The translations under genes and the position numbers were made by a program. DNA of 20,000 bases, taken from an uncultured virus (IMG/VR IMGVR_UViG_2684623068_000003) (lineage: Duplodnaviria > Heunggongvirae > Uroviricota > Caudoviricetes). The notes below the pieces were generated by a model. That model searched no databases and was not told where the DNA came from. It saw nothing but the letters and a program-made list of their open reading frames with translations. Shown here piece by piece: positions 1,897 through 15,290 of the stretch. Each line of letters opens with the position of its first letter. The stretch's first letter is position 1. Where the stretch lies: the IMG/VR virus record IMGVR_UViG_2684623068_000003, one strand, 5' to 3'.

Positions 1897-2808
1897 TCAC
1901 CCGCTAAGAAATGCGGTGACGACATCCTCAACGATATGCTTATCCGATGCACTAAACCCTAATAGCGGGCGTGCATCATACTTCACCTCACGGCTAAAGC
2001 GGTTCGGCTTATCGCTTAAGCCCTCTTGATGTATCCGCGCCATACGCTGAACACGCCCGACAAACTCGACCACGGCGGCATCGCTTGAGCCTTGCGCTTT
2101 CATAAAGCGATTGGTGCGCAGCTTCGCAAACATCTGGCGCTTTACGCGGCCTCGTTTGCCGCTGGTTGGTTGTGGCTTTCGGCTGGCGTAGGGTGTGCCG
2201 TCGGGCGCTTTCTGTTGCTTAATGTGCTGTTGCTGACTGGTGCGCAAGCGCTTCGCCACTTTCACCGCAATTTTGCGGCGCTGCACCGGCGTTAGGTTGC
2301 CAATCAGCCCCGCGAGCCTGTCCTCAAACTGTTTGAGCTCACTCATATCCCACTGACTCACTAGCTCGCCGTTGATATAGAGCTCCATGGGGCGCTCAAC
2401 CGGCTGCGGGATTTGTGGCTCGTTAAGGTGCTTCACATGAAGCGCCCTATCCACCTGTTTGACGATAACGCGCTCGGTGAGGCGCAGACTAAAACTGACA
2501 TCGATACTTTCGTGATTATTCAGGTCAGCAAAGTAAGTGAAGCCGTTCCGTTTGCCCTCATCAGTGGTCATGATATCCGGCTGGTTTTCGCGGAGCCATG
2601 CGTTAATCGGCACAATGAGCAAATCCAGATCGCCAGAATAATCGGTTATGGTCACATTGAGCGTGTACAGATTTTCATGCGATAGCGTCGCGGCTAGCGT
2701 GGTCGCAATCGTCCCGTTATCTACAAACAGGCGCAGCATATCGGGATTTTTACGCAGCACCGGCGCGGCTTTCTCAAGCGCTTCGCGCAGACTTTTGGGC
2801 TTTAACAT
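1897..2808 (-). CDS. R/S: In-frame fusion of tail completion proteins gpR (2808-2347) and gpS (own ATG at 2346, to 1897)
   Basis: First 154 aa are gpR-like (MLKPKSLREAL...RENQPDIMTT...LRLTERVIV...PMELYINGELVSQWD); last 149 aa are gpS-like (MSELKQFEDRLAGL...QQKAPDGTPYASRK...RQMFAKLR...YDARPLLGFS). Confidence 0.9.
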   Translation of the reverse strand: MLKPKSLREALEKAAPVLRKNPDMLRLFVDNGTIATTLAATLSHENLYTLNVTITDYSGDLDLLIVPINAWLRENQPDIMTTDEGKRNGFTYFADLNNHESIDVSFSLRLTERVIVKQVDRALHVKHLNEPQIPQPVERPMELYINGELVSQWDMSELKQFEDRLAGLIGNLTPVQRRKIAVKVAKRLRTSQQQHIKQQKAPDGTPYASRKPQPTSGKRGRVKRQMFAKLRTNRFMKAQGSSDAAVVEFVGRVQRMARIHQEGLSDKPNRFSREVKYDARPLLGFSASDKHIVEDVVTAFLSG

Positions 2809-3061
2809 CGTGTGACTCCTGGCACTGTTTCACGGTTTCCACCTGTAGCGCACAGCTCACCAGTGCGCGCTCTAATTGGCGGTTGTCTTCACTCAGATCG
2901 CCGTTAGTTTTCGGTAGGCTTGCCGGTATCGGGCAGCTCGTCACCTTCGGACAACCAACGTAGATAAGCGTCGGGGGTATCAAAGGCGGGACGGGTGTGC
3001 AACCTTGCAATGTCATCAGGCAAAGCAGACTGATACCAATCGCGCAGCGCTTTATTTTCAT
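2774..3061 (-). CDS. lysC: LysC, o-spanin lipoprotein (Rz1-like)
   Basis: 95 aa; signal peptide with lipobox LQGC; Pro-rich; CPKVTSC...TNGDLSEDNRQLERALVSCALQVETVKQCQE; overlaps lysB and R as in P2. Confidence 0.88.
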   Translation of the reverse strand: MKIKRCAIGISLLCLMTLQGCTPVPPLIPPTLIYVGCPKVTSCPIPASLPKTNGDLSEDNRQLERALVSCALQVETVKQCQESHDVKAQKSARSA

Positions 3062-7716: not shown

Positions 7717-7883
7717 TGTTCAGGTGTCCTGAGTGGTGTTTAGGTTCGGGGCTAGTTTCCCCACCCAGCACTGACACCGCCATCAATCCCCGTCTGACAA
7801 TCGCCTACACAACAGCCCTGTAAGGCGCGCCCTGTCTGCCTTGCGTAGCCTTGCCCTCGTTATCTATGCGAGAGGCAATATCG
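7717..7883. promoter_or_regulatory. Divergent late promoter region (pO/pP) with candidate Ogr-family activator site
   Basis: Intergenic region between divergent O and P; imperfect dyad CGTCTGACAATCGCCTACACAAC (~7791-7813) resembles TGT-N12/13-ACA sites. Assigned mainly by position. Confidence 0.5.
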
Positions 7884-9656
7884 ATGATTACCACGGACAC
7901 ATCACTCCTTCATGACCCGAGGCGACAGGCGGCCTTGCTCTACTGGCAAGGTTTTTCACCCCGTCAGATCGCCGAAACGCTCGGTCAGAAAATCCCGACC
8001 GTCAACAGTTGGAAACGCCGCGATAAATGGGACGACATTCACCCGATTTCCCGCGTGGAAACCAGTATCGAATCCCGCTTAATTCAACTGATAGCTAAGC
8101 CTAAAAAGGATGGGGGCGACTACAAAGAGATTGACCTGCTAGGCCGCCAGATTGAGCGCCTAGCGCGCGTGAATCGCTATAGCCAAACCGGCAACGAGGC
8201 CGACTTAAATCCGAACGTGCGCAACCGCAATAAGGGCGAGCGTAAAGCACCGAAAAAGAACTATTTCAGCGACGAGGCCATCGAGAAACTCAAGTCGATT
8301 TTTTTCGAACAATCTTTCGGCTACCAGCTCGGCTGGCATGAGGCCGGGCTTAAATACCGTATTCGCGACATTCTCAAATCGCGCCAGATTGGCGCTACGT
8401 TTTACTTTTCGCGTGAGTCGCTACTGCGTGCGCTCGATACCGGCCACAACCAGATTTTTCTCTCGGCCAGTAAGACTCAGGCTTATGTGTTCCGTGAATA
8501 CATCATCCAGTTTGCGCGCATGGTGGATGTGGAGCTCACCGGCGATCCGATTGTGCTCGGCAATAACGGCGCAAAGCTGATTTTTCTTGGCACCAACTCC
8601 AACACAGCGCAGAGCCATAATGGCGACCTATTGGTCGATGAGATTTTCTGGATCCCCAATTTCCAGAAACTGCGAAAAGTGGCGTCAGGTATGGCCTCGC
8701 AAAAACATCTGCGTACCACCTATTTCTCGACGCCGTCCACACTGGCACATGGCGCGTATCCGTTCTGGTCGGGTGAACTATTTAACAAAGGGCGCAGCAG
8801 CGCCGACGACCGTGTCGATATTGATATCAGCCACGGCGCACTGGCGAAAGGCGCGCTGTGTGCCGACGGACAATGGCGGCAGATTGTCACCATCGAGGAT
8901 GCGCTCGCCGGTGGCTGCGACCTATTCGATCTCGATACGTTAAAACGGGAAAACAGCGCCGAGGATTTCCGCAACCTGTTTATGTGTGAGTTTGTCGACG
9001 ATAAGGCCTCGGTGTTCCCTTTCGAGGAGCTGCAAGCCTGTATGGTCGATTCGAGGCTGGAGTGGGAAGACTTTATCCAGATTGACCAACACCCTCGACC
9101 GTTTGGTTATCGTCCTGTGTGGATTGGTTATGACCCGTCGAACACCGGCGACAGCGCGGGCTGTGTGGTGATGGCACCTCCCGCCGTTCCGGGCGGTAAG
9201 TTCCGTATTCTGGAGCGCTACCAGTGGAAAGGCATGGACTTTGCCACACAGGCCGAATCCATCAAGGCACTAACTGAAAAATACGTCGTGGAATATATCG
9301 GCATTGACGCCACCGGCATCGGGCAAGGCGTTTACCAACTGGTGCGCAACTTCTTCCCAGCGGTGCGAGAAATTCGCTATAGCGCCGAGGTGAAAACCAA
9401 CATGGTGCTAAAAGCAAAAGACCTCATCACTACTGGGCGATTGGAGTACGACATCGCCTACACCGATATCACGCTCTCGTTTATGGCCATACGTAAAACC
9501 ATGACGGCCAGCGGGCGCGGCATGACCTACGTCGCCAGCCGTAGCGAGGAAGTCAGCCACGCTGATATCGCATGGGCGGCCATGCACGCCATGATTAACG
9601 AACCGCTCACCGCCGGTAACGGCAACGTCACCCCTTCAATTTTGGAATTTAACTAA
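7884..9656 (+). CDS. P: Terminase ATPase (large) subunit gpP
   Basis: Start MITTDTSLLHDPRRQAALLYWQG at ATG 7884 with GAGG RBS; ILKSRQIGATFYF Walker A-like, LLVDEIFW Walker B, IGYDPS and HADIAWA nuclease-domain motifs. Confidence 0.97.
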   Translation: MITTDTSLLHDPRRQAALLYWQGFSPRQIAETLGQKIPTVNSWKRRDKWDDIHPISRVETSIESRLIQLIAKPKKDGGDYKEIDLLGRQIERLARVNRYSQTGNEADLNPNVRNRNKGERKAPKKNYFSDEAIEKLKSIFFEQSFGYQLGWHEAGLKYRIRDILKSRQIGATFYFSRESLLRALDTGHNQIFLSASKTQAYVFREYIIQFARMVDVELTGDPIVLGNNGAKLIFLGTNSNTAQSHNGDLLVDEIFWIPNFQKLRKVASGMASQKHLRTTYFSTPSTLAHGAYPFWSGELFNKGRSSADDRVDIDISHGALAKGALCADGQWRQIVTIEDALAGGCDLFDLDTLKRENSAEDFRNLFMCEFVDDKASVFPFEELQACMVDSRLEWEDFIQIDQHPRPFGYRPVWIGYDPSNTGDSAGCVVMAPPAVPGGKFRILERYQWKGMDFATQAESIKALTEKYVVEYIGIDATGIGQGVYQLVRNFFPAVREIRYSAEVKTNMVLKAKDLITTGRLEYDIAYTDITLSFMAIRKTMTASGRGMTYVASRSEEVSHADIAWAAMHAMINEPLTAGNGNVTPSILEFN

Positions 9657-10678
9657 TGAGCAAACGTAAAGGCCACCGCGCCAAAAAAATGACCGCGCAG
9701 TCTGACGCCTCAGTGCAGGCGTTTACCTTCGGTGAGCCTTCGGCGGTGTTAGACCGTCGCGACATTCTCGATTACGCCGAGTGCATCAATAACGGCAAAT
9801 GGATCGAGCCGCCGGTGAGATTTGCGGGACTGGCGAAAAGCCTGCGCGCCGCCGTCCACCACAGCTCGCCAATTTATGTAAAGCGCAACATTCTCGCCAG
9901 CACCTTTATCCCGCACCCGTTACTGAGTCAGCAGGAGTTTAGCCGCTACGTGCTCGACTATCTGGTCTTCGGAAATGCTTTTTTAGAAAAGCGTTTTAAT
10001 CAGCTTGGTGAGGTCATGCGACTGGAGTGCTCACCGGCGAAATATACCCGCCGAGGTGTTGAGGAGGATGTTTATTGGTTCGTGCAGTCATTCAAAGAGC
10101 CGCACCGCTTCGCGCCGCGTTCGGTGTTCCATTTGATTGAGCCAGATATTAATCAGGAGCTGTACGGCTTGCCGGAATATATGAGCTCGCTCAACTCGGC
10201 GTGGCTGAATGAATCCGCTACCCTATTCCGCCGCAAGTATTACCAGAACGGCGCGCACGCTGGCTACATCATGTACGTGACCGACGCCGCACAGAGTAAT
10301 ACCGACGTTGAGGCACTGCGTGAGGCGATGCGCAGCTCGAAAGGACTGGGTAATTTTAAAAACCTGTTTTTCTACGCGCCGAACGGTAAACCGGATGGGA
10401 TCAAGATTGTGCCGCTCAGCGAGGTAGCGACCAAGGATGATTTCTTTAACATCAAGAACGCGACCCGCGATGACTTGCTCAGCGCTCACCGCGTGCCACC
10501 CCAGATGATGGGCGTCGTACCCAATAACACCGGCGGCTTTGGTGACGTCGTCAAAGCGGCTCAGGTTTTTGTACGCAACGAGCTAACGCCCTTACAGGAG
10601 CGCATCAAAGAGGTGAATGACTTTCTCGGTCAGGAAGTGGTTCGCTTTAAGCCTTACGAGCTACCGAAAAACAAGTAA
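9656..10678 (+). CDS. Q: Portal protein gpQ
   Basis: 340 aa; AFTFGEP, AAVHHSSPIYVKRN, DINQELYGLPEY, ATLFRRKYYQNGAHAG, AHRVPPQMMG. Confidence 0.97.
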   Translation: MSKRKGHRAKKMTAQSDASVQAFTFGEPSAVLDRRDILDYAECINNGKWIEPPVRFAGLAKSLRAAVHHSSPIYVKRNILASTFIPHPLLSQQEFSRYVLDYLVFGNAFLEKRFNQLGEVMRLECSPAKYTRRGVEEDVYWFVQSFKEPHRFAPRSVFHLIEPDINQELYGLPEYMSSLNSAWLNESATLFRRKYYQNGAHAGYIMYVTDAAQSNTDVEALREAMRSSKGLGNFKNLFFYAPNGKPDGIKIVPLSEVATKDDFFNIKNATRDDLLSAHRVPPQMMGVVPNNTGGFGDVVKAAQVFVRNELTPLQERIKEVNDFLGQEVVRFKPYELPKNK

Positions 10679-10696
10679 CGAACAGACAACCACAAC

Positions 10697-10719
10697 AGCC
10701 GCCGCCGGGCGGCTTTTTT
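10697..10719 (+). terminator. Rho-independent terminator of the PQ operon
   Basis: AGCCGCC-GCCG-GGCGGCT stem-loop followed by TTTTT, 19 bp after the Q stop. Confidence 0.85.
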
Positions 10720-10731
10720 GTATCCCTCACC

Positions 10732-10761
10732 AGCGCCCACAGGAGCGCCCACAGGAGCGCC
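10732..10761 (+). repeat. 12-bp tandem repeat (AGCGCCCACAGG x2.5)
   Basis: AGCGCCCACAGG AGCGCCCACAGG AGCGCC read directly from the sequence. Confidence 0.85.
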
Positions 10762-10871
10762 AGCACCGCGAGGACGCAGAAAGACGCATCAACATCCAAA
10801 CCGACACCCCAAACAGCACCACGACGCCCTCAGACGATCATAGATAACTGTATTAACACCCTCAGCGCGCA

Positions 10872-10890
10872 ATGCTATCCCCGCCTCGCC
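10872..10890 (-). other. cos site (19-nt cohesive end)
   Basis: Minus strand GGCGAGGCGGGGATAGCAT matches the recalled P2 cos GGCGAGGCGGGGAAAGCAC at 17/19; expected position downstream of Q. Confidence 0.9.
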
Positions 10891-11134
10891 TGCCCGCTTT
10901 AGGGGGTGGTTTTTATGCACTTGCATGAGCCCGCCCAAGCTGCGCCAGCGCTGGCGCAAAGCGATAAAAAAAAAGTTAAAGTTGCATGCATTTAAATGCA
11001 AGCTCATGCAATGCATACTAACTTTCTATAGACATATTTAAATTAATTTATTTCAGAAACCTATACATTAATTTATCGTAATATGTACATTTATATATTT
11101 TTGCTTTTCAAATCTACTAAAAACCCATGTTTTA

Positions 11135-12868
11135 TTATGGGAATATTGGAATTACAGAAAAATTCACAATACGCGTAGTTGTATTAATCCCCTGATATAC
11201 AGTGGTTTGTGTAATCTGGTTGGATACCTCATCATATTTCATTGTATCAGTGAGACATGCTAAAGCCACCTCTGGATTTTTTTTGTACAAAATTGCATAT
11301 CTTTTATTCATCCATGCCAGCACACAACGATGTAACGCATTTGTTCCTTCTTCAATATTTTTTGGATGTAGTTTTAACCCAAGCACATTCAGAATAAAAC
11401 TTAAAAACCTTGCCCCCTTATAATTTGGAAACCTTTCCATTTCAATTACTTCCTCATATAATAGCCGACGTAATTTATGTTTTATAATTTCACTAGGTTT
11501 ACCATGTATACTAGAAGTTTGGAAAAAACCGTCTAAGACAGTATTATGCTGAATTGACCAACAGTCCCAGATAGGACTTTTTACAGCTGATGCATAATAT
11601 ATTACATCTAGCATATTCTTTGCTACAGCATCATATATTGAGTGATATCTATATCTCCCCACCCCCTTTACCTTATTTCTCAAGACAAAATTAGAAGGTT
11701 TTTTAACATTACTTATCTCACACGAAACTTCATTTAAAAAATTGACACAAACATCCAATCGTCGAACTGGTTCAGAATCCCAACTACCAAGCATGCCATT
11801 TACTTTATAAATCCCACTACTTTCATCAGTAATATAACCCAAAGCTCTATTTATCATTGTAGGGCTCTGACAAATAACGCCTTGCAAATAAGATTTAATT
11901 GTAAGAAGAAAAGCGTTGCAGAAAACATCAAATTGTTTAACAGACCAATGCTTTCGAATTTCGCTGTCAATATCGAAAACTATAGATAAATTTTCAACAA
12001 GAACATAATTTTTGAACAAAGCAGTACTTAAAGGTTTTACATATCCTATAAATCCAGAATCATAATAATTAGACTCATGATACAAAAATGAGTCTGTATT
12101 TAATATTGCTTCTGTGAAAAAATTTTTTGCAAAAATATCAACATTAATTCGATATTTTTTGCAATTATCCATTTCAGTAAAGAGTAGTATGGAAAGTGGA
12201 AGTGCCGACTCAGCCACAGCTTTGCAAAAACGCTTATCAGATATAAGCACAAGGATTTCATTTGCAACTAACTCAACTAAAGGCGTTTTCTTTACACTTT
12301 CCCCTCCATCTTTCTCAGAACCATTTGTTGCATACTTAACAAGGTTTGGGATAGACCTTGTAATCTCATCGGCTATAACAATCAAATCATTTTTATACCC
12401 ACGAACAATATAGCCATACAATACATTCCCATACTTTTTAGCCGTCCAGCGTGAAAAAACAGATGGCCTAATAAAAGCAAAAAAAACCCATACAAGGAAT
12501 ATGAGAAAAAACACGCCAGCTAAAAGCGCTTGCCAACCAGCTTGACTAATTAAGCTACCTTTCAAAACTGGCCAGCCTTGCGCTCGCCATAGGTCAGTTA
12601 ATAATGATAATACTCCGACTAGCGTAACCGTGTAGAAAGTAATTTTTTCAAGAGCTAGAGGTGCAGTTTTAATTCGAAATCGATATCGAGTATCTGCTAT
12701 TGTCCATGCTAGTATCATTAATGCCAAGCCAGCAAGAAACTCTGAAAAACCGAAGATTTTTGGACCATTCTGGTTGAGGTTGACAAAGCATAAAAGCTCA
12801 GTGCAATTTTTAGTCATGATAATAAGCTTATTATAAGAAATGTATACCATAGTATCTAATTTTAACAT
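11135..12868 (-). CDS. Hypothetical AT-rich membrane protein (about three N-terminal TM helices plus ~440-aa soluble region) in the A-cos cargo hotspot
   Basis: Uninterrupted 577-aa ORF (alternative starts at 12850 and 12817); hydrophobic segments IFGFSEFLAGLALMILAWTIA, ITFYTVTLVGVLSLLTDLW and WQALLAGVFFLIFLVWVFFAFI; abrupt AT-rich composition. Confidence 0.85.
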   Translation of the reverse strand: MLKLDTMVYISYNKLIIMTKNCTELLCFVNLNQNGPKIFGFSEFLAGLALMILAWTIADTRYRFRIKTAPLALEKITFYTVTLVGVLSLLTDLWRAQGWPVLKGSLISQAGWQALLAGVFFLIFLVWVFFAFIRPSVFSRWTAKKYGNVLYGYIVRGYKNDLIVIADEITRSIPNLVKYATNGSEKDGGESVKKTPLVELVANEILVLISDKRFCKAVAESALPLSILLFTEMDNCKKYRINVDIFAKNFFTEAILNTDSFLYHESNYYDSGFIGYVKPLSTALFKNYVLVENLSIVFDIDSEIRKHWSVKQFDVFCNAFLLTIKSYLQGVICQSPTMINRALGYITDESSGIYKVNGMLGSWDSEPVRRLDVCVNFLNEVSCEISNVKKPSNFVLRNKVKGVGRYRYHSIYDAVAKNMLDVIYYASAVKSPIWDCWSIQHNTVLDGFFQTSSIHGKPSEIIKHKLRRLLYEEVIEMERFPNYKGARFLSFILNVLGLKLHPKNIEEGTNALHRCVLAWMNKRYAILYKKNPEVALACLTDTMKYDEVSNQITQTTVYQGINTTTRIVNFSVIPIFP

Positions 12869-13019
12869 TTTTGGCTAATCCATTAACCAACTAAAACACT
12901 GTTCTTCACCCATATAAAAATCACCACTTGCAGTTTTAATTGTACTTACAGTGCTCACTGCATCTCGTCTTTAGTGATTTTTAATGTCTGCAAATTAGAA
13001 CATTATGAACTTCATATTA

Positions 13020-15290
13020 TTATGGATACCATTCATCTAAGCTCGGATATGAGAATACTATTCCATCATAAACTAGTGATGCCCCCCGAGCTAACGCTTC
13101 AAGCTCCCAGCGCTGCGCAGTAATACCTTCTTTAGCTAAAGATCGGCTTATTTTCCACGTTCGCTCCCGTTCGCAGTGGGTCAGTCGCGCCGACGGCGCT
13201 AAATCACGCGGTTTATTCGGTTCTGCACTACGTTGATGCCGATTCACTCTTCCCAACTGTGCCTTTGCTGAGTCTCTAATCACCTTGGCAGCGTCGGGGT
13301 CGTTCCAGCTAACATCGCCGCTTTCTATAAGTTTCATCACCGCTGAGGCGTATTCAGACGGTGTAACCGGTGGTGTTATATCAACACTATGATGCCCTTC
13401 CCCACAGTTATTGACAGGACTCCGAGGCGCGCCAGAGGCGCTTTTTAAAGTCAAAGGATCAAGGTCAACGGCCTTGCTGACGATGCGCCATTGAGTCTCG
13501 CGAGTTTTGTGGATGTGGCTTTCACCAAGATGCGGCGCAAAGATGCCGACAACCTTCGGGACTTCTTCGTCGTATTCGTTGAGCTCGTCGGCTATCTCGC
13601 GAGCGACACGAACGGTCTGTAAATCTCTTGCTACATTTGCACCGCCCTGCGCCTCGATATAGGCCGCAAAGTCACCACCGTCGGCAGCTGCTCGCACAGC
13701 CTCGACGCTTTCATCAAAACTATCGGCGATACTGATACCCCGTAGGCTTTGGCGGCGACACTCACGGTATGCGCCCATTGTAGGAATACCAATCGGGTGA
13801 AATTGTGGAATACGCCAGATAGACGCCCATGCTGTAACGGCGGCGGCGGTCTGAGATAAGGGCTTGCCGGTGTCATGGTCTATTTCGCCGTCAAGCGCAT
13901 AACCATCGATATTTTTAGAAACGTATTTAGCGATGTAGGCTACCGCGCCGCCTTTGTTCAGGTGCTTACACTCAAAGCGCTGCTTACGAGCTCCGCGTTC
14001 GTCACCGTCTTCTTTTAACGCGTAACGTTGCATAATCTCGACAATAGCCGCGCGTTGTTTGCGGTCGCAAAACAGCACCATATGCCAGTGAGGTGTCCCG
14101 TCGTGGTGAGGCTCAACCACACGAATCCCATAGACGTTTAGATCGCGGTCTTTGAATGCGGTGCGCATCTTGCTCCAGATTCTGACTAGATAACGCTGGC
14201 CATCTTTCGGGGAAAAGGCTTCTCCATCCCACTTGTGGTTAAGCTGGCATTGTTTGTCACGCTTGTTTTTTACCTTGCGGGTCGGGTGATATTTCGAGGG
14301 CGTGGTGATGGTGACAAACATACCGATGTGATTTTTTTCAACGGCATATTTTCCGATACCGTAAATAGTGCTCATCAGCTCCATGCGGCGAATCTCAGGG
14401 TTAGAGATACTCGCCATGACTTTATCGATCAGGTCGATTCGTTCGCCGGTTTCGACGTTCTCAAGGTCGCACCCTTTGAGGTATTCCATATTAGCCGCAC
14501 GACGGGCGCGAACATCACTGATCGCTTGCTTACTGGCATAAGATGAGCGTTTGAAATTGACTTCACCGGCGGCGATAAGCAGTGCCTCACGCCACTGGGT
14601 GCGCTGCGCTTTGAGCTTACGTATCCACCATTCATCATTGATGAGGCGCAGGATGCTGCGGAATGCGCCACGCATATCTAGCTTTCCCTTACGGAAACGT
14701 TGCCAGTGCATTGGTGTGATATTAAAAGCGCGTGCTGCGCCAGCTACATGAGCATAGAGATCGACTTGAGCCTCATCGGTAAAAAGCGCCTCTTGATCAT
14801 GACATTCGAGAAATGCGTCGCTCAGCTCCTCATAAGCTGAATACAACTGAGCCGCAATGCGACCGGCTAGCCGCTTTAACTCTTTATCGTGCATATCAGG
14901 CAAGCCGCGATAAATCTCTAGCTCACTCAAAAATCGCAGTGAGGCTTTGACGTCCATATCGAATTTAGTGTTAACAAACTCGAGTCTCGGGTGGATACGC
15001 GGCAAATAAATTTTGTATAGAAAGCGGTGCGCGGCCAGTATCCCTTGTGTGTTTAACAGGTAGTTATGGCGCTTAATGAAAATCTTGCTGAGGAAATACG
15101 GCATTGAGTCAATTTTGCGTAAGGCGTCTTGCCCCTGAAGGTATTCTTCACGGGTAAGAGGTCTCTCTTTGCCAATAGCTTCGCGTGGTGCATTCCAGCT
15201 ATACGCGCCCACAAACGGCGCTCGAGGTTCAGCGTTAAAGGCTGGCGGTGGCGTGGGGGCAATTCGCCCCCTATTGGTGAACGAGCTCAA
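13020..15290 (-). CDS. A: Rolling-circle replication initiator gpA (HUH endonuclease)
   Basis: 756 aa, TTG start; SNPEIRRMELM, FVTITTPSKYH, RVVEPHHDGTPHWHM (HUH), AYIAKYVSKNIDG (two catalytic Tyr), AWASIWRIPQF. Confidence 0.96.
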   Translation of the reverse strand: MSSFTNRGRIAPTPPPAFNAEPRAPFVGAYSWNAPREAIGKERPLTREEYLQGQDALRKIDSMPYFLSKIFIKRHNYLLNTQGILAAHRFLYKIYLPRIHPRLEFVNTKFDMDVKASLRFLSELEIYRGLPDMHDKELKRLAGRIAAQLYSAYEELSDAFLECHDQEALFTDEAQVDLYAHVAGAARAFNITPMHWQRFRKGKLDMRGAFRSILRLINDEWWIRKLKAQRTQWREALLIAAGEVNFKRSSYASKQAISDVRARRAANMEYLKGCDLENVETGERIDLIDKVMASISNPEIRRMELMSTIYGIGKYAVEKNHIGMFVTITTPSKYHPTRKVKNKRDKQCQLNHKWDGEAFSPKDGQRYLVRIWSKMRTAFKDRDLNVYGIRVVEPHHDGTPHWHMVLFCDRKQRAAIVEIMQRYALKEDGDERGARKQRFECKHLNKGGAVAYIAKYVSKNIDGYALDGEIDHDTGKPLSQTAAAVTAWASIWRIPQFHPIGIPTMGAYRECRRQSLRGISIADSFDESVEAVRAAADGGDFAAYIEAQGGANVARDLQTVRVAREIADELNEYDEEVPKVVGIFAPHLGESHIHKTRETQWRIVSKAVDLDPLTLKSASGAPRSPVNNCGEGHHSVDITPPVTPSEYASAVMKLIESGDVSWNDPDAAKVIRDSAKAQLGRVNRHQRSAEPNKPRDLAPSARLTHCERERTWKISRSLAKEGITAQRWELEALARGASLVYDGIVFSYPSLDEWYP
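13411..13430 (-). other. Replication origin (gpA nick site) within gene A
   Basis: Minus strand GCGCCTCGGAGTCCTGTCAA, identical to the recalled P2 ori, in the 3' part of A. Confidence 0.92.

Follow-up and report, generated by a model that had tools for sequence, protein, structure and literature searches.

A mobile single-gene cargo of a P2-like prophage as a plausible candidate for a new membrane-anchored defence family

In P2-like phages the locus between the replication gene A and the portal gene Q (gpA-gpQ) is a defence hotspot, which carries old and tin in P2 itself (Rousset 2022, PMC9122126), and 49% of P2 elements carry known defences (Moura de Sousa 2026, PMC13586616). What role, then, could be played by a gene that fills this locus alone and belongs to no named family? 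The question is raised by an open reading frame (ORF) at positions 11135 to 12868, minus strand, of a 20,000-nucleotide stretch of DNA from an uncultured virus (IMG/VR record IMGVR_UViG_2684623068_000003; hereafter the window), which an original prediction had singled out as a candidate single-gene anti-phage system. The gene is a horizontally mobile single-gene cargo of the hotspot. It is plausibly a clean candidate for a new single-gene membrane-anchored defence family, a reading partly supported by its genomic context.

The cargo gene and its locus

The window contains the early and packaging regions of a P2-like prophage, with the following features around the cargo gene.

7851-9656, plus strand: large terminase gene (gpP-like; Pfam match)
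9656-10678, plus strand: portal gene (gpQ-like; Pfam match)
10879-10890, minus strand: 12-nucleotide match to a cos-like core, inside a stretch conserved with provirus G001 (P2 motif)
10930-13291, no strand: variable cargo block, delimited by alignment with G001, which has 3,048 bp of unrelated sequence there; it holds the last ~90 codons of gene A
11124-11141, minus strand: terminator-like hairpin and T-run overlapping the stop codon of the cargo gene (consensus only)
11135-12868, minus strand: longest cargo ORF, 577 amino acids including 17 non-conserved N-terminal codons (ORF call); stop codon at 11135-11137
11138-12817, minus strand: likely coding sequence, 560 amino acids from M18, the start common to 40 aligned homologues
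12830-12858, minus strand: sigma-70-like -35/-10 pair with 10 of 12 matches (consensus only), inside the first 17 codons and 12 nucleotides upstream of M18
13020-15290, minus strand: P2-type Phage_GPA replication initiator gene A (Pfam, E = 1.8e-104)

The product of gene A is 62% identical to gpA of Peduovirus P2, with 98% of the length covered, and the 12 nucleotides at 10879-10890 are presumably the P2 cos core. The cargo gene lies between gene A and the portal gene Q, adjoining cos, in a P2-like phage. The G+C (GC) content is 0.27-0.41 over approximately 10,850-13,100, against 0.50-0.57 in the flanks (300-nucleotide windows). The AT-rich block had been placed at 11,020-13,020; the drop in GC content and the hotspot position were borne out, but its extent, 10,930-13,291, proved slightly wider. 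Within these 2.36 kb the cargo ORF is the only credible gene, the other ORFs being shadow ORFs or peptides of at most 55 amino acids without recognisable family or conserved counterpart. The predicted single-gene cargo in a described gpA-gpQ hotspot (Rousset 2022, PMC9122126) was thereby confirmed. A 27-codon ORF at 12875-12958, minus strand, lies between the end of gene A and the cargo gene and has no conserved counterpart in the other loci. Immediately beyond the conserved cos side, at 10985-11030 where the cargo block begins, the DNA is AT-rich and bears nested short TGCA-type palindromes, which fell below the thresholds of the repeat search.

The exchange of this cargo can be seen by comparison with the nearest record, provirus G001 (33,127 bp, CheckV 100%), which is 96-97% identical to the window at 9000-10930 and 13292-15274. 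A sensitive realignment placed the breakpoints at 10929/10930 and 13291/13292. The 2,362 bp that separate them in the window are replaced in G001 by 3,048 bp of unrelated, AT-rich DNA, on which three ORFs run in the same direction. The content of the locus varies among close phages, and since the swap is seen directly, the locus is the swap-prone gpA-gpQ site described by Rousset 2022 (PMC9122126).

The ORF is intact, as predicted, with 577 amino acids in its longest form and 560 from the conserved M18, an ATG at 12817 in the alignment of 40 homologues. Of the 8,000 candidates scored in a word-indexed search, 786 clusters matched at E<=1e-3, almost all of them over the full length, and this is therefore a real gene, not a chance ORF. 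The pair at 12858-12830 is the sole sigma-70-like match upstream of M18 on the minus strand, promoter-like sites numbering 11 against 8.5 expected in shuffles; terminator-like sites numbered 8 against 2.3 expected. No Shine-Dalgarno sequence was seen for the cargo gene, and its leader would be very short if the candidate promoter were used. When sequencing runs were searched with the window, no RNA run was found, and in three DNA runs of a single study no more than 0.31 of the words sampled were present.

The protein family and its predicted architecture

No named family accommodates the protein, in agreement with the original prediction. It had no match in Pfam (E<=0.1, which covers SieB PF14163, HEAT and Arm), in NCBIfam (E<=1) or in PADLOC-DB 2.0.0 (E<=1, including the PDC candidates, Tmn and Rst). 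Its sole family match is PHROG 25374, of which it is a member (E = 2e-65; residues 155-555 align with profile positions 2-383 of 406); this PHROG has no assigned function, and its profile does not span the membrane module described below. Megablast of the cargo block against complete E. coli genomes gave no match. A search of the literature on this architecture found no description of the family, a weak negative since papers cannot be searched by sequence.

The 120 matches listed have 523-619 amino acids and lack a Pfam domain, almost all of them bearing the name "hypothetical". Identity reaches 75% with the nearest relative and 74% with the nearest one of named source, from Hafnia paralvei. 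An exhaustive search of representatives at 50% identity gave 635 matches at E<=1e-3, of which 504 also passed E<=1e-10 and 300 passed E<=1e-30. A metagenome scan for close relatives gave only three loci, at 42% identity. There was no fused form among proteins of 1,011-2,885 amino acids, and longer members with N-terminal extensions (such as P0160, 808 amino acids) have no Pfam domain in the extension. Split forms were considered and set aside, as the 91 shorter matches look like fragments or contig-end cuts and are mostly singletons on short contigs.

AlphaFold2 models were obtained for the full-length protein with 40 homologues (predicted local distance difference test, pLDDT, 79.4; predicted template modelling score, pTM, 0.75) and for the soluble part alone with 33 sequences (pLDDT 83.7, pTM 0.84). 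Together with the alignments they divide the gene as follows.

12470-12754, minus strand: membrane module, residues 39-133, of three helices and an amphipathic RYRFR stretch (model, alignments)
11249-12469, minus strand: predicted cytoplasmic alpha-solenoid, HEAT/ARM-like, residues 134-540 (models, fold searches, alignment)
11663-11968, minus strand: most variable solenoid patch, residues 301-402, a candidate recognition surface (alignment with the two nearest relatives)
11138-11248, minus strand: C-terminal three-stranded beta element, residues 541-577 (models)

The three N-terminal hydrophobic helices of the original prediction were recovered in the model at residues 42-68, 73-97 and 109-133. 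Kyte-Doolittle means over 19 residues are 1.75, 1.54 and 2.94 for the successive transmembrane (TM) helices, so that hydropathy backs TM1 and TM3 strongly and TM2 moderately. A short N-terminal strand (27-30) pairs in the model with a strand of the TM2-TM3 loop (100-103), and Cys residues are conserved at positions 22 and 27. The loop charges (+4/-2 after TM1, +1/0 between TM2 and TM3, +6/0 after TM3) together with the positive-inside rule point to an N-out, C-in topology, in which the solenoid would be cytoplasmic and the periplasmic exposure only ~35 residues.

The membrane module is the best conserved part, with a mean column identity of 0.83 against 0.61-0.71 in the soluble parts. Three residues, R65, E168 and S260, do not vary among 97 divergent members (28-74% identity to the query), and F39, F41, A49, Y62, F64, G85, L89, W94, W127, P135, N142, S172, A202, C215, N249, E265, G275, L493 and W519 are conserved in at least 90%. 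Polar residues within the helices are retained as well: E43 in 77 of the 97 (D or Q in a further 11), D59 in 87, D92 in 80 (E in a further 13) and Q113 in 82. Conservation this high makes it unlikely that the module is a mere anchor, and we infer that it does more. Compared with the two relatives of 74-75% overall identity, the protein is 100% identical in TM1 but only 59% identical in residues 301-402; the latter region is also the least conserved family-wide. A variable cytoplasmic patch of this kind is what a recognition surface would look like.

The remainder of the model is an all-alpha domain with a small C-terminal three-stranded sheet and no Rossmann-like sheet. Foldseek found nothing at E<=1e-3, either for the full-length model (against PDB and BFVD) or for the domain model. 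With VIA the best Z was 8.9 for the full-length model and 10.3 for the domain, the latter to 7mq8_LM, a HEAT protein of the small-subunit processome (root-mean-square deviation 6.2, 277 aligned), followed by TSC2-N (9.5), TELO2-TTI (9.0), PP2A-A (8.6) and TOG (8.6) as well as designed repeats; every one of these values falls below the VIA background for helical repeats, roughly 13. A profile of the 97 members matched PDB sequences at best with E = 0.013, to a designed repeat protein. In the ESM Atlas the whole protein and the soluble part fell next to unnamed clusters only; DUF2254, carried by 12% of the members of the nearest cluster with any Pfam, was dropped at scores of 0.88 and 0.79, under the bar of 0.9. 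A regex scan of the protein found no Walker A, HExxH, GxSxG, CxxC or HEPN Rx4-6H motif. The ~440-residue remainder had been described as free of known motifs, and this held for Pfam, NCBIfam, PADLOC and the regex motifs alike; nor did the proposed PADLOC and AlphaFold-Foldseek checks yield a catalogued defence family or a confident match to a non-defence family or fold. On the models, the soluble domain is best described as an irregular HEAT/ARM-like scaffold without enzymatic fold, for which membership of that superfamily is a candidate assignment.

In its position, AT-richness and swapping between near-identical phages, the gene resembles the P2 gpA-gpQ hotspot cargo of Rousset 2022 (PMC9122126), as it does in forming one short unit that brings along promoter-like and terminator-like signals. 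It differs from Old, Tin and the PADLOC-modelled hotspot systems in having no sequence relation to them and in not being found in E. coli genomes by DNA search. Table S5B in Rousset 2022 contains other single genes described as "3 TM" without Pfam, among them entry 27, with 131 E. coli P2-hotspot occurrences, which has the same slot and likewise encodes one long protein; it is set beside our protein by description, and the printed part of that table shows no resemblance by eye.

The validated membrane-anchored defence protein Tmn, in which a mutation in the alpha-solenoid arm alters phage specificity (PMC13001434), is the closest working analogue that we found. Both come as a single gene and are membrane-anchored, in the present case by prediction; the arm of Tmn is a cytoplasmic ARM/HEAT-like solenoid, and the effect of Tmn is exerted at the membrane (PMC13001434). 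According to the same source, however, Tmn has a P-loop nucleoside triphosphatase (NTPase) and two TM helices, whereas the present protein has three N-terminal helices and no Walker A or NTPase match. Assignment to Tmn or to the KAP-YobI membrane NTPases was rejected, given the lack of a Walker A motif and of any Pfam, NCBIfam or PADLOC match, and the all-alpha model. The transmembrane effectors of Hydrolase+3TM, 2TM-1TM-TIR and RT-nitrilase+TM (Rousset 2022) are likewise membrane proteins of P2 or P4 hotspots and are thought to be abortive-infection effectors, but they belong to systems of several genes in which a distinct enzyme acts as sensor or generates the signal, whereas the cargo gene has no conserved partner and no PADLOC match. 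Hydrolase+3TM itself, in which a gene for a HAD-like hydrolase adjoins that of a 3-TM protein, was discarded, since the block has no further credible gene, the 61 homologue loci share no conserved neighbour and PADLOC gave no match.

Homologues in other genomes and mobile elements

In a set of one genome per species a pattern search gave 76 matches, of which 62, at 61 loci, code for a relative; all are ~38-50% identical to the query. The loci belong to Gamma-, Beta- and Alphaproteobacteria, Bdellovibrionota, Acidobacteriota, Nitrospirota, Desulfobacterota, Planctomycetota and others; a few labels of metagenome-assembled genomes (an archaeon, a Bifidobacteriaceae) may be binning errors. When ORFs within 6 kb were compared all against all, the homologue itself was found in 59 loci and no flanking family in more than 4 of the 61, and the gene is therefore a single-gene unit. 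A homologue is present in 2 of 301 sampled genomes of one carrier's genus, the carrier included. The GC content of the gene lies below that of the far flanks (>3 kb) in 37 of 48 loci, by 6.5 points on average (Wilcoxon p=3e-6; 13 loci with short matches or short flanks were left out).

In IMG/VR, 10 of 15 pattern matches encode a relative; Pfam was run on 88 of the 92 neighbouring ORFs, four sister-contig duplicates being left out. The gene occupies the following places on these contigs.

L065: lambdoid phage, between a DUF1367 gene and the holin gene
L066 (2303-7710): insert of a Mu-like phage between the Mu F and Mu protease I head genes, together with an OLD-family ATPase-TOPRIM nuclease and a GNAT protein
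L067, L070 and L072: beside integrases at provirus ends
L068: beyond gpU/gpD of another P2-like element
L073: near Mrr and a pPIWI-associated nuclease
L074: after a large serine recombinase

The insert in L066 looks like a defence-type cargo site within the morphogenesis module. Given such varied placements, the one-gene cassette fills accessory slots of several unrelated mobile elements.

The neighbours of the bacterial homologues were scanned in 59 loci, with at most three ORFs per side picked greedily by length and compared with Pfam and PADLOC (E<=1e-10). L004 had no neighbours, and L061 (a 48-residue match) was left out except for one ORF scanned with Pfam; of 305 neighbour references, five had no Pfam scan and a few more no PADLOC scan. 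Defence-type neighbours were present within three genes in 16 of the 59 loci.

L002: PDC-S31
L005: SIR2
L008: ApeA/HEPN and IetS
L009: Abi_C
L010: DUF4238, a family validated in the P2 hotspot (Rousset 2022, PMC9122126)
L014: PglZ and BrxL; SMC-like ATPase with a PIN protein
L016: type IIG restriction-modification; CBASS phospholipase and cyclase
L019: NucC-like nuclease
L020: PDC-S60
L022: IetA and IetS; UvrD-like helicase
L028: Abi_alpha / PDC-S47
L031: ZorA
L032: CBASS-type exonuclease; Mrr
L034: Dsr1-like
L042: HEPN_AbiU2
L043: SoFic

A further 16 loci had only toxin-antitoxin (TA) or mobile-element genes (HipA, Phd, integrases, insertion sequences, Tn7-like TniQ/TniB/TnsB, and genes of integrative and conjugative elements, ICEs). 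In three of the loci (L021, L025 and L055) the gene is placed in an ICE between hipA and coupling-protein genes, and in L045 and L053 it is Tn7-like cargo. In L031 (8274-11674) and in the viral contig L070 (2136-5571) the homologue follows the same three genes, encoding a RuvC-like protein, an MvaT-type xenogeneic silencer and an unannotated protein of ~250 amino acids. HU-like DNA-binding genes were seen near the homologue in L009, L016, L049 and L057, and nucleoid-associated proteins seem to travel with these islands.

Fisher's test was used to compare the neighbour counts with those of 25 control loci (149 ORFs), taken from 14 genomes of a single genus at coordinates that had been fixed arbitrarily.

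Raw PADLOC matches, E<=1e-10: homologue loci 18/59, control 6/25, p=0.61
PADLOC matches curated as system-specific: 13/59, 1/25, p=0.055
Defence-type neighbours: 16/59, 1/25, p=0.017
Defence, TA or mobile-element neighbours: 32/59, 3/25, p=0.0003
The same, with one ambiguous control locus counted: 32/59, 4/25, p=0.0015

The raw rates do not differ because single PADLOC hidden Markov models also match housekeeping paralogues. In the control these were UvrD/Rep, adenosine deaminase, IscS, ThiF and a sigma-54 activator; among the homologue loci they were DnaG and RpoD. Such single matches on housekeeping genes are common at E<=1e-10 and even at E<=1e-30, and raw neighbour counts without a control therefore overstate the defence context. 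The expectation that homologues sit beside defence genes thus held after curation, with 16 of 59 loci against 1 of 25, and failed on the raw PADLOC counts. As a whole, the context enrichment gives moderate, not strong, support for a defence role.

Possible roles of the protein

From the context and the published behaviour of the hotspot, it appears fairly probable that the protein acts in conflicts with phages or with other mobile elements. At P4 hotspots, 6 of 8 randomly chosen loci of unknown function were protective (Moura de Sousa 2026, PMC13586616). More specifically, but tentatively, the gene may encode a single-polypeptide, inner-membrane-anchored protein for anti-phage or inter-element conflict that combines a sensor with an effector. 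With its N-terminus in the periplasm, the protein would hold in the membrane three conserved helices, with E43, D59, D92 and Q113 and the invariant interfacial R65, and in the cytoplasm a 440-residue HEAT/ARM-like solenoid. The patch at 301-402 would recognise a phage-made protein or a phage-induced state, the signal would pass to the membrane module, the membrane would be perturbed by ion leak or depolarisation, and the infection would abort before progeny are released. Detection of a cytoplasmic phage product by the solenoid, with an abortive response carried out by the membrane module, is a conjecture that we hold at less than even odds. The topology predicted for the protein and the place of its variable patch do lean towards sensing in the cytoplasm.

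In its boldest form, which we consider doubtful, the protein would be a new phylum-spanning single-polypeptide immune receptor without NTPase, nuclease or signalling enzyme. Its fast-evolving cytoplasmic HEAT-like solenoid would bind a phage protein directly and gate an ultra-conserved three-helix module, an undescribed membrane-perturbing effector with buried E43, D92 and Q113 and the interfacial R65, and the one-gene cassette would move among P2-like, lambdoid and Mu-like phages, ICEs and Tn7-like elements.

Several results weigh against a defence function. The original proposal of a candidate defence system stands in so far as the context favours conflict with phages or other mobile elements, and is weakened by a raw PADLOC neighbour rate not above the control and by the non-defence cargo of the hotspot: P2 hotspots include partition systems in about a quarter of elements and a cytolethal distending toxin in ~2%, and only 3 of 8 further P2 candidates protected (Rousset 2022, PMC9122126). 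The enrichment appeared only after our own unblinded curation, against a control from a single genus at arbitrary coordinates. No defence or mobile-element neighbour lies within three genes in 27 of the 59 loci, some of which look like housekeeping contexts (L027 beside dnaG-rpoD, L047 beside tatC). The protein has no recognisable effector or enzymatic domain, and its alpha-solenoid fold is generic, the best Z of 10.3 standing against a background of ~13. Finally, tblastn against 50,697 deposited phage genomes gave no match.

Much of this evidence (the partition and toxin cargo, the 3 of 8 protective candidates, the 27 loci, the raw rate equal to the control and the lack of a defence-typical domain) fits a non-defence accessory gene, or "moron", that would alter the physiology or envelope of the lysogen or help its carrier through maintenance, lysis timing or counter-defence. 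We regard this as a serious rival, albeit on balance an unlikely one. The gene is cargo of four or more unrelated types of mobile element and, in chromosomes of several phyla, lies beside BREX, CBASS, IetAS, Dsr1 and AbiU2; this spread is hard to reconcile with a function specific to the life cycle of one phage. In addition, its patchiness (2 of 301 genomes) and its fast-evolving patch are typical of conflict genes.

The protein might also exclude superinfecting phages, the membrane module blocking translocation of the incoming DNA while the cell survives. SieB, T4 Imm and HK97 gp15 are inner-membrane superinfection exclusion proteins, and the known proteins of this kind are much smaller. Like SieB (PF14163), which is a prophage-encoded inner-membrane protein guarding lysogens, the cargo protein is prophage-encoded and predicted to reside in the inner membrane. 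Its highly conserved membrane module could contact a conserved host membrane component, and the N-terminal strand paired with the TM2-TM3 loop would lie on the predicted periplasmic face; Cys 22 and 27 are a conserved pair. It is, however, far larger than the exclusion proteins and has a predicted cytoplasmic solenoid, and it has no Pfam match to SieB or other exclusion families. We rank entry exclusion as improbable because only ~35 residues would be periplasmic, while the bulk of the protein and its variable surface are predicted to be cytoplasmic, where tail and ejection proteins are less accessible.

More improbable still is a protein that would be silent in a plaque assay, either because it is aimed at other mobile elements (plasmid or ICE entry exclusion, anti-conjugation), as its three ICE and two Tn7-like loci might suggest, though ICEs account for only 3 of 61 loci and phage cargo slots are at least as frequent, or because it depends on a host partner, as would suit an alpha-solenoid scaffold without enzymatic domain, though with no neighbour conserved in more than 4 of 61 loci any partner would be a core host protein.

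If the gene restricts phages, as the anti-phage reading holds, it adds a defence family missed by PADLOC 2.0.0, Pfam and NCBIfam, in the form of a 1.7-kb one-gene cassette ranging from Enterobacterales to Acidobacteriota and Bdellovibrio. Its conserved membrane module without known relative would then be a new effector, and the protein a simple model of a repeat-protein sensor coupled to the membrane without an NTPase. Should it have no such activity, it is a useful reminder that a place in the hotspot is not in itself proof of function.

In either case, the locus and its near-identical sister provirus show directly how the hotspot swaps whole defence candidates. The corresponding cargo of G001 is an operon on the minus strand (locus L064, G001:22600-26200) with the following ORFs, given in coordinates of that locus.

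2113-2829, minus strand: 238 amino acids
1448-2116, minus strand: 222 amino acids
363-1451, minus strand: 362 amino acids

This three-gene cargo had no PADLOC match, and its last gene had a weak match to the metallo-beta-lactamase fold (E = 5e-4, below the Pfam cutoff); it is another unannotated cargo of the hotspot. On the other side of the block, at 13020-13291, the last ~90 codons of gene A differ from G001, in which the A-like ORF ends ~25 codons past the breakpoint. Since the 3' end of A lies inside the differing block, the recombination breakpoint falls within the 3' end of this gene, and the C-termini of A differ between the two phages.

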